64,000 nucleotides of DNA from Escherichia coli (GTDB lineage Bacteria > Pseudomonadota > Gammaproteobacteria > Enterobacterales > Enterobacteriaceae), in assembly GCF_051903065.1 (NCBI RefSeq), contig NZ_CP178438.1; one strand, written 5' to 3'. The position numbers were made by a program, and so were the translations under genes. This document shows, piece after piece, positions 3,706-62,318 of the stretch. The notes beneath the pieces were generated by a model, which searched no databases, was not told the origin of the DNA, and saw nothing but the letters and a program-made list of their open reading frames with translations. Numbering within the stretch: the first letter of the stretch is position 1; each line of letters begins with the position of its first letter.

Positions 3706-4569
3706 ATGATCCGCAGTATGACCGCCTACGCCCGGCGTGAAATCAAGGGTGAATGGGGGAGCGCAACCTGGGAAATGCGCTCGGTAAACCAGCGTTATCT
3801 GGAAACTTACTTTCGTCTGCCGGAGCAGTTCCGTAGCCTTGAACCTGTCGTTCGCGAGCGTATTCGTTCTCGCCTGACGCGCGGTAAAGTGGAATGTACC
3901 CTGCGCTATGAGCCAGATGTTAGCGCGCAAGGTGAGCTGATCCTCAACGAAAAACTGGCTAAACAGCTGGTAACTGCCGCGAACTGGGTAAAAATGCAGA
4001 GTGACGAAGGGGAAATCAACCCGGTTGATATTCTACGCTGGCCGGGCGTGATGGCAGCCCAGGAGCAGGATCTTGACGCCATTGCCGCTGAAATTCTCGC
4101 GGCGCTGGATGGTACGCTGGACGACTTTATTGTCGCGCGCGAAACCGAAGGTCAGGCACTGAAAGCATTGATCGAGCAGCGTCTGGAAGGCGTCACCGCC
4201 GAAGTGGTCAAAGTCCGCTCCCATATGCCGGAAATCCTGCAATGGCAGCGTGAACGCTTGGTCGCGAAGCTGGAAGATGCTCAGGTTCAGTTGGAAAACA
4301 ACCGTCTGGAGCAGGAGTTGGTTCTGCTGGCACAACGAATTGACGTTGCCGAAGAACTGGACCGCCTCGAAGCGCATGTCAAAGAGACCTACAACATTCT
4401 GAAGAAAAAAGAAGCCGTTGGTCGTCGTCTGGACTTTATGATGCAGGAGTTCAACCGCGAGTCGAACACTCTTGCGTCGAAGTCTATCAATGCCGAAGTG
4501 ACAAACTCCGCGATTGAGCTGAAAGTGTTGATTGAGCAGATGCGCGAGCAGATTCAGAATATTGAATAA
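3706..4569 (+). CDS. yicC: YicC family stress-induced protein
   Basis: 287 aa ORF MIRSMTAYARREIKGEWGSATWEMRSVNQRYLE... matches YicC. Confidence 0.93.
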   Translation: MIRSMTAYARREIKGEWGSATWEMRSVNQRYLETYFRLPEQFRSLEPVVRERIRSRLTRGKVECTLRYEPDVSAQGELILNEKLAKQLVTAANWVKMQSDEGEINPVDILRWPGVMAAQEQDLDAIAAEILAALDGTLDDFIVARETEGQALKALIEQRLEGVTAEVVKVRSHMPEILQWQRERLVAKLEDAQVQLENNRLEQELVLLAQRIDVAEELDRLEAHVKETYNILKKKEAVGRRLDFMMQEFNRESNTLASKSINAEVTNSAIELKVLIEQMREQIQNIE

Positions 4570-4729
4570 CTCGTAACGCCAATTCTTACTTTTCAGCCTT
4601 CACAAATGCCGCCCACTCAAACAGAGCGGCATTTTTCTTCCCCGCAACTTTCAATTCTGTTTTTCGTGCCTGCTCCAGATTTTGCGATGTTTTTTTGCCC
4701 AGCACACTGAGAACGTGAGATACTCACAA

Positions 4730-4745
4730 CTGTATATAAATACAG
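4730..4745 (+). promoter_or_regulatory. LexA (SOS) box CTGTATATAAATACAG upstream of dinD
   Basis: Perfect CTG-N10-CAG palindrome about 45 bp upstream of the dinD start; dinD is a known SOS gene. Confidence 0.8.
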
Positions 4746-4790
4746 TTACAGATTTACTTTCTTTGCAATTGATATCACATGGAGTGGGCA

Positions 4791-5615
4791 ATGAACGAAC
4801 ATCATCAACCTTTTGAAGAGATAAAACTGATTAATGCAAACGGAGCAGAACAATGGTCAGCAAGACAACTTGGGAAACTACTGGGTTATTCAGAGTATCG
4901 TCACTTTATACCTGTATTAACGCGCGCCAAAGAAGCCTGTGAGAACAGTGGTCACACAATTGATGACCATTTCGAGGAGATCCTCGATATGGTCAAAATT
5001 GGCTCAAATGCCAAAAGAGCATTAAAAGACATCGTACTCTCCCGCTATGCCTGTTACCTGGTAGTACAAAACGGCGACCCTGCGAAACCGGTCATTGCGT
5101 CAGGGCAGACTTATTTTGCTATCCAGACCCGACGGCAGGAGCTTGCTGACGATGAAGCATTTAAGCAACTTCGTGAAGACGAAAAGCGTCTGTTTCTGAG
5201 AAATGAGTTGAAAGAACATAACAAACAATTGGTTGAGGCAGCACAGCAAGCTGGGGTAGCGACAGCTACTGATTTCGCCATATTTCAGAATCATGGTTAC
5301 CAGGGGCTGTATGGTGGATTAGATCAGAAAGCTATTCATCAGCGGAAGGGGCTGAAAAAGAATCAGAAGATCCTGGATCATATGGGTTCAACAGAACTGG
5401 CGGCTAATCTCTTTCGAGCTACCCAAACAGAAGAAAAACTCAAGCGGGATGGCGTGAATTCAAAACAGCAAGCTAATACCACACACTTTGACGTGGGTAG
5501 CAAGGTGAGGCAAACCATTCAGGAACTTGGCGGAACCATGCCTGAGGAGTTGCCGACCCCGCAGGTCAGCATCAAGCAGTTGGAAAACAGTGTAAAAATT
5601 ACAGAGAAGAAATAG
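4791..5615 (+). CDS. dinD: DNA damage-inducible protein D
   Basis: Translation from ATG at 4791 (MNEHHQPFEEIKLINANGAEQWSARQLGKLLGY...) matches DinD; preceded by a LexA box. Confidence 0.92.
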   Translation: MNEHHQPFEEIKLINANGAEQWSARQLGKLLGYSEYRHFIPVLTRAKEACENSGHTIDDHFEEILDMVKIGSNAKRALKDIVLSRYACYLVVQNGDPAKPVIASGQTYFAIQTRRQELADDEAFKQLREDEKRLFLRNELKEHNKQLVEAAQQAGVATATDFAIFQNHGYQGLYGGLDQKAIHQRKGLKKNQKILDHMGSTELAANLFRATQTEEKLKRDGVNSKQQANTTHFDVGSKVRQTIQELGGTMPEELPTPQVSIKQLENSVKITEKK

Positions 5616-5906
5616 CAGAAACTAAAAACTCTTTTTGTTGATTGAGATACCCGATGCGTAAGCCAAAGTCCAGGTGCGGTGAACACAATGGCTAAACATT
5701 GCACCTTTCTTTTCCACCCCTCAATTTTAACCTATTTTTTCTTATGCATTTTCTCAGACAAGAAGTCAGAAGAATGCATCTACGCTACAGAAAATAGCGA
5801 TTTCACATAACTACAAGTTATCAATTTCCTCTCACCTTAAAAAATCTCAATCGTGACAATACGCACAAATCGCTACCCTGCCAGACAGATTTTTAGGGAG
5901 AGAACC

Positions 5907-42865: not shown

Positions 42866-42907
42866 TAGTTGAGTATCGATCACAGTTTGCGTTTTGTCCA
42901 AATATTA

Positions 42908-42923
42908 CTGTTTATTTATACAG
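42908..42923 (+). promoter_or_regulatory. LexA (SOS) box CTGTTTATTTATACAG in the istR/tisAB divergent control region
   Basis: CTG-N10-CAG palindrome immediately followed by a TATAAT hexamer at 42933-42938. Confidence 0.75.
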
Positions 42924-43159
42924 TAAACTTCTATAATATCACTGTACGCAATGTGTTATGCGGGGGCCGCATCGTTACCCGGCGCACTAAGTCCTGGCTG
43001 AAACGGGTGGTGCCGTCAGCGCCTTAACCCCGCGTGAGCACACTGTGTTATGTCAACAAGCACAACGTTTCTCCTTGAGATACCGCGTGCACAACAGCTG
43101 GCAACAGGCAGCGGAAAGGTACGTCAGCTGGCAGTGCTCCTGAACCACAGGAGACGCGT

Positions 43160-43249
43160 ATGAACCTGGTGGATATCGCCATTCTTATCCTCAAACTCAT
43201 TGTTGCAGCACTGCAACTGCTTGATGCTGTTCTGAAATACCTGAAGTAA
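43160..43249 (+). CDS. tisB: Type I toxin TisB (29 aa membrane peptide)
   Basis: Translation MNLVDIAILILKLIVAALQLLDAVLKYLK* read directly; below ORF-track cutoff. Confidence 0.88.
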   Translation: MNLVDIAILILKLIVAALQLLDAVLKYLK

Positions 43250-43271
43250 TTCAGATTCAAGTCGCACCAAA

Positions 43272-59493: not shown

Positions 59494-60558
59494 ATGGAAC
59501 ATTTCGACGTGGCGATTATTGGCCTCGGCCCGGTAGGGTCGGCGTTGGCGCGAAAGTTAGCAGGCAAAATGCAGGTGATCGCGCTGGATAAAAAGCACCA
59601 GTGTGGTACTGAAGGTTTCAGCAAACCCTGCGGCGGTCTGCTGGCACCGGACGCGCAGCGATCTTTTATTCGCGATGGACTGACGCTTCCTGTCGATGTG
59701 ATCGCTAATCCGCAGATTTTCAGCGTCAAAACCGTCGACGTCGCCGCATCGCTCACGCGTAACTACCAGCGAAGCTATATCAATATTAATCGCCATGCTT
59801 TCGACTTGTGGATGAAATCGCTGATCCCCGCCAGCATTGAGGTTTACCACGATAGCCTGTGCCGGAAAATCTGGCGTGAGGATAATAAATGGCATGTCAT
59901 TTTTCGTGCAGACGGCTGGGAGCAGCATATTACCGCCCGCTATCTGGTCGGTGCCGATGGTGCCAACTCGATGGTGCGGCGACATCTCTACCCGGATCAT
60001 CAAATCCGTAAATATGTCGCAATCCAGCAGTGGTTCGCAGAGAAACATCCGGTGCCGTTCTACTCCTGCATCTTTGATAATGCGATAACTGACTGTTACT
60101 CATGGAGTATCAGCAAAGACGGTTATTTTATCTTTGGTGGTGCCTATCCAATGAAAGACGGTCAGACGCGTTTCGCGACGCTGAAAGAGAAAATGAGCGC
60201 CTTTCAGTTCCAGTTTGGCAAAGCGGTGAAAAGCGAAAAATGCACAGTGCTGTTTCCCTCACGCTGGCAGGATTTTATCTGCGGTAAGGACAACGCCTTT
60301 CTGATTGGTGAAGCGGCGGGATTTATCAGCGCCAGTTCGCTGGAGGGGATTAGCTATGCGCTGGATAGCGCAGAGATTCTGCGTGCGGTGTTCCTGAAAC
60401 AGCCGGAGAAGAGCAACGCCGCTTACTGGCGCGCCACCCGCAAACTGCGTTTAAAACTCTTCGGCAAGATAGTAAAAAGCCGATGCCTGACCGCACCGGC
60501 TTTAAGAAAGTGGATTATGCGCAGTGGTGTGGCACATATTCCACAGTTGAAGGATTAG
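59494..60558 (+). CDS. cbrA: FAD-dependent oxidoreductase CbrA (colicin M resistance)
   Basis: 354 aa from [25 protein letters not shown]... (Rossmann GxGxxG). Confidence 0.92.
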
Positions 60559-60668
60559 CCAACGCGCTTCACATCGCCCACCAGCAGGATGTAAGAGAGC
60601 GCGCCAATCAACGCGACGGCGGAGATATAAACCAGTGCCGGGGCAAAGCCATAGCCTTGCAACAGATA
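60555..60668 (-). pseudogene. dgoT: 3'-terminal remnant (about 37 codons) of D-galactonate transporter gene dgoT; rest of dgo operon absent
   Basis: Minus-strand translation [37 protein letters not shown] matches the C-terminus of DgoT as recalled; an in-frame stop immediately precedes it; its stop codon overlaps the cbrA stop. Confidence 0.6.
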
Positions 60669-60803
60669 TTAGTCCACAAAAAAACACCTCATAAGAAAAG
60701 GTCTTATATCGGGCAGAAATCTGAAAAGGGAGATCAGGCGCTAAACAGGAGGGAAAGAAGAGTATGCTTTCAACGGCTTAGCTACTCGTTTAAAGGATTA
60801 ATC

Positions 60804-61460
60804 ATGAAGTTGAATTTTAAGGGATTTTTTAAGGCTGCCAGTTTATTCCCACTGGCGCTGATGCTTTCAGGCTGTATCTCGTATGCTCTGGTTTCCCATA
60901 CCGCAAAGGGTAGTTCAGGAAAGTATCAATCGCAGTCAGACACCATCACTGGGCTATCGCAGGCAAAAGATAGTAATGGAACAAAAGGCTATGTTTTTGT
61001 AGGGGAATCGCTGGATTACCTTATCACTGATGGTGCCGATGACATCGTTAAGATGCTCAATGATCCAGCACTTAACCGGCACAATATTCAGGTTGCCGAT
61101 GACGCAAGATTTGTTTTAAATGCGGGGAAAAAGAAATTTACCGGCACAATATCGCTTTACTACTACTGGAATAACGAAGAAGAAAAGGCACTGGCAACGC
61201 ATTATGGTTTTGCCTGTGGTGTTCAACACTGTACCAGGTCACTGGAAAACCTAAAAGGCACAATCCATGAGAAAAATAAAAACATGGATTACTCAAAGGT
61301 GATGGCGTTCTACCATCCATTTAAAGTGCGATTTTATGAATACTATTCACCCAGAGGCATTCCGGATGGTGTTTCCGCAGCATTACTGCCAGTGACTGTT
61401 ACGCTGGACATCATTACTGCACCGCTGCAATTTCTGGTTGTATATGCAGTAAACCAATAA
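60804..61460 (+). CDS. yidX: Uncharacterized lipoprotein YidX
   Basis: 218 aa from [30 protein letters not shown]... (lipobox LSGC); ORF-track 60483 start is an upstream extension. Confidence 0.9.
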
Positions 61461-61505: not shown

Positions 61506-62318
61506 TTAATTCAGCACATACTTTTCAATGGCAAACGCCACGCCATCTTCAAGGTTGGATTTGGTGACAAAGTTCGCCACTTCTTTCACCGAAGGAATAG
61601 CATTATCCATTGCCACACCGACGCCTGCATATTCAATCATTGCAATGTCGTTTTCCTGATCGCCAATCGCCATGATTTCTTCCGGTTTAATACCTAACAC
61701 GTCGGCCAGTGATTTCACCCCCGTACCTTTGTTAACGCGTTTATCGAGGATTTCGAGGAAGTACGGCGCACTTTTCAGCACGGTATATTTCTCTTTCACT
61801 TCCTGCGGAATACGCGCGATAGCCTGGTCGAGGATGGCGGGTTCATCAATCATCATCACTTTCAGGAACTGGGTATTGGGGTCCATTTTCTCCGCTTCGC
61901 AGAACACCAGCGGAATAGTAGCAACGAAGGATTCATGCACCGTGTAGTAGCTGATATCACGGTTGGCGGTGTACAGCGTGGTGCGGTCCAGTGCGTGGAA
62001 ATGAGAACCGACTTCGCGAGAGAGTTTTTCCAGGAAACGGTAGTCGTCATAGCTGAGAGCGGTTTGCGCCACAGTGCTACCATCAGCGGCCTTCTGTACC
62101 AGCGCGCCGTTATAAGTAATGCAGTAGTCGCCCGGCTGTTCCATATGCAGCTCTTTCAGGTAATTGTGAACACCTGCATAAGGGCGACCCGTCGTTAGCA
62201 CGACATTTACGCCACGGGCGCGAGCTGCAGCAATCGCATTTTTAACGGCAGGTGAAATGGTGTGATCGGGCAGCAGAAGGGTGCCATCCATATCGATAGC
62301 AATGAGTTTGATAGCCAT
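61506..62318 (-). CDS. yidA: Sugar phosphatase YidA (HAD superfamily, Cof-type)
   Basis: 270 aa MAIKLIAIDMDGTLLLPDHTISPAVKNAIAAARARGVNVVLTTGRPYAG... with DxDGT motif. Confidence 0.94.
   Translation of the reverse strand: MAIKLIAIDMDGTLLLPDHTISPAVKNAIAAARARGVNVVLTTGRPYAGVHNYLKELHMEQPGDYCITYNGALVQKAADGSTVAQTALSYDDYRFLEKLSREVGSHFHALDRTTLYTANRDISYYTVHESFVATIPLVFCEAEKMDPNTQFLKVMMIDEPAILDQAIARIPQEVKEKYTVLKSAPYFLEILDKRVNKGTGVKSLADVLGIKPEEIMAIGDQENDIAMIEYAGVGVAMDNAIPSVKEVANFVTKSNLEDGVAFAIEKYVLN

Follow-up and report, generated by a model that had tools for sequence, protein, structure and literature searches.

Since the 1990s the operator of dinD has counted as a textbook case within the LexA regulon, and the dinD box can be set beside several described sites of the same kind. 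Reports on in vitro LexA binding are said to go back to Lewis et al. 1994 and Fernandez de Henestrosa et al. 2000. Table 4 of PMC3009722 gives 18 E. coli LexA boxes as 25-mers, and the same study used RT-qPCR in lexA(Def) and lexA3(Ind-) strains to confirm that dinD depends on LexA. The gene (pcsA) is also listed under 'Known SOS box' in a review (PMC6590174), and it appears among the classical SOS genes with a 9.8-fold induction by AZT and a 12-fold lexA-dependent effect (PMC11228462 Table 1), the latter figure denoting dependence on LexA cleavage. The DinD protein dismantles RecA filaments (Uranga et al. 2011, according to the passages of PMC4786428 and PMC4129442 that cite it), an activity that fits a gene under SOS control. 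Both the LexA-dependent induction and the dismantling of RecA filaments are taken here from the literature, to which we add what the DNA itself shows: the sequence of the site, its exact match with the published operator, how it scores and how far it is conserved within E. coli.

The stretch of DNA that we analysed (64,000 nucleotides in full, referred to as the window) is part of an E. coli chromosome with the gene order rph-yicC-dinD-yicG-ligB, and a 1.4-kb query of the region found matches in all but two of the 5,426 complete E. coli genomes (5,424), where yicC and dinD are the features annotated. On the plus strand, positions 4730-4745 read CTGTATATAAATACAG, a CTG-N10-CAG sequence that also fits the stricter pattern CTGT-N8-ACAG; it forms the core of the 20-mer AACTGTATATAAATACAGTT (4728-4747, with no strand assigned), which is self-complementary at 18 of 20 positions. 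A sequence-only reading of this DNA had placed a perfect CTG-N10-CAG here, about 45 bp upstream of dinD, and had taken it to be the dinD operator, to be compared with the known one. All of this was borne out: the string is present, the gap between the box and the ATG at the RefSeq dinD start (4791) is exactly 45 nt (4746-4790), and the 25-mer ACAACTGTATATAAATACAGTTACA (4726-4750) is letter-for-letter the dinD LexA box of PMC3009722 Table 4.

Compared with K-12, the 25-mer, the gene and its neighbours are all the same as in the window. Specifically, the stretch from the -35 element to the ATG is identical in K-12 MG1655, and the differences between the two strains amount to two DinD residues and a few upstream bases, with the operator unchanged. 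The boxes of umuDC, sbmC and recN resemble that of dinD in having CTGT-N8-ACAG with an alternating AT spacer, and all four are top-ranking in matrix score with a low heterology index. They differ at the outer positions, which are AA...TT in the dinD box but TA...TA in the near-consensus boxes of the other three, and in that dinD, unlike the genes of these comparison boxes, is an accessory gene missing from some E. coli lineages. We regard the identification of the 20-bp palindrome (4728-4747) as the LexA operator of E. coli dinD as virtually certain. This operator is already known, and confirming it adds nothing new.

A single long open reading frame lies downstream of the box and runs to 5615. 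It is the dinD coding sequence (4791-5615, plus strand; 274 aa plus stop, with the RefSeq annotation mapped from an identical strain), preceded by a ribosome binding site, GGAG, at 4781-4784, 6 nt upstream of the ATG. The 274-aa product is similar over its full length to E. coli DinD, carries a Pfam Bro-N domain at residues 10-105 (E = 1.8e-7) and matches phrog_8036 (E = 1e-106). Between yicC, which ends at 4569, and the box lies a terminator-like hairpin with a U-run (4604-4639, plus strand; 9-bp stem, -12.4 kcal/mol, z = -4.6), the hairpin being followed by UUUUUCUU; dinD thus has a transcription unit to itself.

In a relaxed hexamer scan, the best sigma-70-like match in 4640-4800, among the top 0.18% of window positions, was a predicted promoter at 4695-4724 on the plus strand, with a -35 element TTGCCC (4695-4700), an 18-nt spacer, a -10 element GATACT (4719-4724) and an extended -10 TG at 4716-4717. 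The predicted start, about 4731, falls inside the box, which would thus span about -3 to +17, a usual arrangement for repression by LexA. Under this arrangement, a LexA dimer would sit on both the CTGT and ACAG half-sites, and the bound repressor would block RNA polymerase, since the box overlaps the predicted start. After DNA damage, RecA filaments formed on single-stranded DNA stimulate self-cleavage of LexA, so that the operator would be vacated and dinD transcribed. A stricter promoter/terminator scan at default stringency reported no sigma-70 site in 4500-5800, and the searchable literature, which does not extend to the early dinD/pcsA papers, yielded no mapped dinD transcription start. 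Hence we infer the exact promoter geometry (-35, -10 and start at about 4731) from the sequence, and the placement of the box relative to the dinD promoter, which if wrong would have refuted the sequence-only reading, holds for the relaxed scan, in which the box overlaps the start, but obtains no promoter to be measured against in the strict one.

In an alternative geometry the site would still be the LexA operator, but the -10 element would be formed by the AT-rich spacer between the half-sites (TATATA/TATAAA, 4733-4740), and LexA would cover this element instead of the start point. The spacer does hold TATAAT-like hexamers, and the lack of a canonical promoter in the strict scan, together with that of a mapped start in the searchable literature, leaves some room for such an arrangement. 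There is, however, no acceptable -35 at 16-19 nt upstream of these hexamers, and the TTGCCC/TG/GATACT combination not only scores best but is also conserved, its -35, TG and -10 being invariant across four divergent dinD-bearing E. coli lineages, in which 7 of the 43 nt that follow the box vary. We therefore consider the spacer geometry unlikely, and the upstream promoter, with the box across its predicted start, is retained as the working arrangement.

Another reading would have the palindrome serve not as a site for a protein but within the leader of the dinD transcript, where it would form a hairpin that affects stability or termination. As RNA, 4728-4747 is able to form an 8-bp hairpin (-7.1 kcal/mol, z = -3.3), but such folding is common to any perfect palindrome, and transcription from the predicted start, about 4731, would leave part of the 5' arm out of the RNA. 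In addition, the LexA matrix is matched at positions that are irrelevant to pairing, no U-run follows the palindrome, and the LexA dependence of dinD has been published. The hairpin or terminator reading, very improbable on these grounds, was rejected in favour of the LexA operator.

For scoring, we used a symmetrised LexA matrix built from 17 published E. coli boxes (PMC3009722 Table 4), with dinD left out. The weight-matrix scoring suggested along with the sequence-only reading gave a high value for the dinD 20-mer, 26.0 of 31.6 bits possible, corresponding to P = 7.6e-10 per position by the exact score distribution and to expected matches of 5e-5 per 64 kb and 0.003 per 4.6 Mb. With the same 17 sites, the Berg-von Hippel heterology index of the dinD box was 2.95, ranking fifth among 18 boxes; Table 1 of PMC11228462 gives 2.2, a value undercut by only two of the boxes listed there. 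The bare pattern CTGT-N8-ACAG was found twice in the window against 0.67 expected, and at least two occurrences were found in 14 of 100 shuffles, so that with such mild enrichment the count alone is no proof against chance. Nevertheless, a chance match without function, which this weak enrichment of the bare pattern would allow, has a practically negligible probability, because a window of this size should contain only 5e-5 matches that score so well on the matrix, and because the published operator to which the site is identical precedes a gene with documented LexA dependence.

The second LexA box of the window, that of tisB/istR-2, is located at 42906-42925 (no strand assigned) and reads TACTGTTTATTTATACAGTA, upstream of the tisB ORF (43161-43250), in agreement with the tisB LexA box named in the earlier reading. 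Read on the opposite strand, it is identical to the istR2 entry in Table 4 of PMC3009722; because that entry belongs to the training set, the score of 29.4 bits for this box is not independent. The dinD and tisB boxes alone exceeded 20 bits, consistent with the two SOS-controlled loci proposed for the window, and the scan of the 64-kb window with the 17-box matrix found no further LexA sites above 17 bits. The third-best match, TTCTGGTTGTATATGCAGTA (61432-61451, 16.7 bits), falls within the final codons of a 325-aa ORF (60483-61460), which is convergent with the ORF at 61506-62318; it is probably a chance match and was rejected as a third SOS site, since about 3.7 such matches are expected per genome and it is not in a promoter. 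The tisB/istR-2 box belongs to the same motif class as the dinD box and is the strongest of the regulon, with a heterology index of 1.8 (PMC11228462). Unlike the dinD box, it sits between the divergent tisAB and istR-2 transcripts and controls a toxin/antisense pair. The two loci share a further feature: towards the 3' end of dinD, 16 nt (5567-5582, plus strand) are complementary to tisB mRNA, pairing with 43214-43229 as an exact reverse-complement match for which 0 are expected by chance. This complementarity has been published without a shown function, and tisAB-dependent cleavage of dinD mRNA was not seen (PMC2577331).

Within E. coli, the box is retained in lineages whose promoters are 92-100% identical as well as in a class of alleles with a diverged N-terminus, and the single box variant seen in divergent lineages is T4741C, which scores 24.4 bits with an 18-box matrix. 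The two DinD allele classes differ at 39 of 71 residues over positions 12-82 (window 4824-5036); at the nucleotide level, identity is 95% over the 150 nt upstream, 67% over the first 300 nt of the gene and 98.7% over the remainder, which looks like the swap of an N-terminal, Bro-N-like domain. The alternative allele is closer to the homologues of Thiothrix and Neisseria. In ST131-type genomes the entire dinD cassette is absent, from after the yicC stop to just before yicG (window about 4570-5850), and the yicC-yicG spacer is occupied by an unrelated stretch of about 250 bp; the operator is thus dispensable, because the whole cassette is missing in some E. coli lineages. The GC content of the dinD stretch is 41-46%, compared with 51-58% in the flanks, and this low GC content together with the absence from ST131-type genomes suggests horizontal gain or loss of the cassette.

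Homologues were sought in species-representative genomes with a degenerate DNA pattern for FQNHGY[QR]GLYGG, which returned 82 stretches, 80 of which were analysed. DinD homologues occur in varied settings, including plasmids of Thiothrix and Zymomonas, satellite phages of Streptococcus, where an integrase gene adjoins, and Neisseria, with parAB as neighbours on plasmids; a Klebsiella copy has an in-frame stop and is located between ibpB and a transporter gene. None of the 80 DinD homologues in other species had a LexA-matrix match of at least 15 bits within 250 nt upstream, and the best upstream score among 16 Enterobacterales orthologues of the same length was 9.7 bits. The box was therefore not conserved outside E. 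coli, with no phylogenetic footprint among the approximately 80 homologues, indicating that LexA control belongs to the E. coli cassette and not to the DinD family. Since the cassette is specific to E. coli and its homologues elsewhere are found in unrelated contexts, we do not hold the absent footprint against the operator. Nor is binding by LexA contradicted by the negative strict promoter scan or by the dispensability of the site. The name 'DNA damage-inducible protein D', which has been passed by homology across many phyla, fits the E. coli cassette but not the family, and is probably unjustified for most of the homologues.

Some database records deserve mention here. Two 'Campylobacter phage' records of 174 kb, MG065686.1 and MG065691.1, each contain a gene whose product shares 99.3% identity with E. 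coli DinD, probably a sign of E. coli DNA in the assemblies. In PLSDB, the records NZ_CP141089.1, NZ_OL790696.1, CP125156.1 and NZ_CP119140.1 are whole chromosomes filed as plasmids (E. coli, 4.8-4.9 Mb; K. pneumoniae, 5.37 Mb; N. gonorrhoeae, 2.17 Mb), and such entries distort plasmid statistics.

When the dinD promoter was queried as a 141-nt sequence, only the first 81-82 nt were covered in some genomes. We found that in these genomes the box is split by ISKox3, a 1,316-bp element of the ISL3 family, in the form CTGT-ATATAAAT-IS-ATATAAAT-ACAG, the 8-bp duplication being exactly the spacer of the dinD box (4734-4741), either ATATAAAT or ATATAAAC. Junction queries detected ISKox3 in the dinD operator of 284 of the 5,426 complete E. 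coli genomes, in one orientation in 61 and in the other in 223; the two orientations and the presence of both the T and the C box variants point to at least three independent events. Other operators on E. coli chromosomes are also occupied. The tisB/istR-2 box is, like the dinD box, a landing site of ISKox3 in other strains: in strain AR202.2 the element is inserted in this operator, between tisB and ivbL, as CTGT-ATAAATAA-ACAG. In strain AR_0114 it is found in the box adjoining hokE, which Table 1 of PMC11228462 counts as a classical SOS gene. For strain ECO3183, a copy was noted at the record coordinates of that in AR202.2, from the coordinates alone.

The same register was observed on other replicons. 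All six of the plasmid copies of ISKox3 that we read were inserted in this register, each into a different CTGT-N8-ACAG site; umuD follows two of these sites and an S24 peptidase gene a third. Scans with the ISKox3 end returned 22 phage contigs (IMG/VR) and 26 metagenome contigs, and in the pooled set CTGT was present at exactly -12 to -9 in 43 of 54 distinct left flanks (binomial P about 3e-93), ACAG at +9 to +12 in all 28 right flanks, and a perfect 8-bp duplication, equal to the spacer, in 26 of the 28 sites with both flanks. The 26 target 20-mers that could be reconstructed had a median score of 25.5 bits, compared with 22.0 for the 18 published LexA boxes, and their base frequencies track the LexA matrix at all 20 positions. 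The setting of the targets was judged from the identity of the neighbouring genes, stop-free stretches across the sites being uninformative; the adjoining genes encode UmuD-like (Peptidase_S24), DinI-like and small uncharacterised phage proteins. ISCfr12 and ISEc53 have the same flanks as ISKox3, each at a single site. One human gut metagenome contig had half-boxes of mixed origin, with CTGT TTTTATAT from another LexA box on the left of ISKox3 and dinD ATATAAAT ACAG TTACAGATTTAC on the right, without a matching duplication, and may have arisen either by recombination between two IS copies or by chimeric assembly.

The targets differ from LexA boxes in one respect: at the fourth base of CTGT, no G was present in 52 half-sites of ISKox3 targets, as against 28% G in LexA boxes. 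Furthermore, a few low-scoring ISKox3 sites keep a perfect CTGT/ACAG. This invariant T and the retention of CTGT/ACAG in low-scoring sites favour direct reading of the sequence by the transposase over guidance by bound LexA. ISKox3 insertions have also been recovered under selection in Klebsiella capsule genes, for which no flanks are given (PMC12057282), and the element is thus not confined to promoters.

Based on these observations, we are highly confident that SOS operators are the dedicated landing site of the ISKox3 group of the ISL3 family, a group that takes in ISCfr12 and ISEc53 on the strength of single sites. The searchable literature, with ISfinder and most subscription journals lying outside it, contained no paper naming both ISKox3 and dinD, and no description of operator targeting by ISKox3 was found in it; of the papers there that name both ISL3 and LexA, some leave targeting undiscussed and the others use each term no more than twice. 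The chances that the targeting is both real and not yet described seem to us evenly balanced. In our reading, an insertion between the half-sites destroys the operator, and 1.3 kb then separates the SOS promoter from its gene. ISKox3 is carried on IncX3 blaNDM plasmids, and a LexA box as its address would help the element to spread, given how commonly plasmids and prophages carry boxes of this kind. If true, this targeting would mean that ISKox3 uncouples dinD, plasmid umuDC, tisB and hokE from LexA control in clinical lineages, and it would be a rare case of a transposable element that targets the operator of a regulon; it deserves a separate study.

Other elements with preferred targets are known. 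For example, IS1397 and ISKpn1 insert into REP/BIME palindromes, IS4321 and IS5075 into the inverted repeats of Tn21-family transposons, and IS10 into a symmetric hot-spot consensus. The ISKox3 group is similar to all of these in having a short symmetric consensus target that is entered in a fixed register. It differs from them in the nature of that target, which is the operator of a transcription factor, common to a whole regulon and to many plasmids and prophages.
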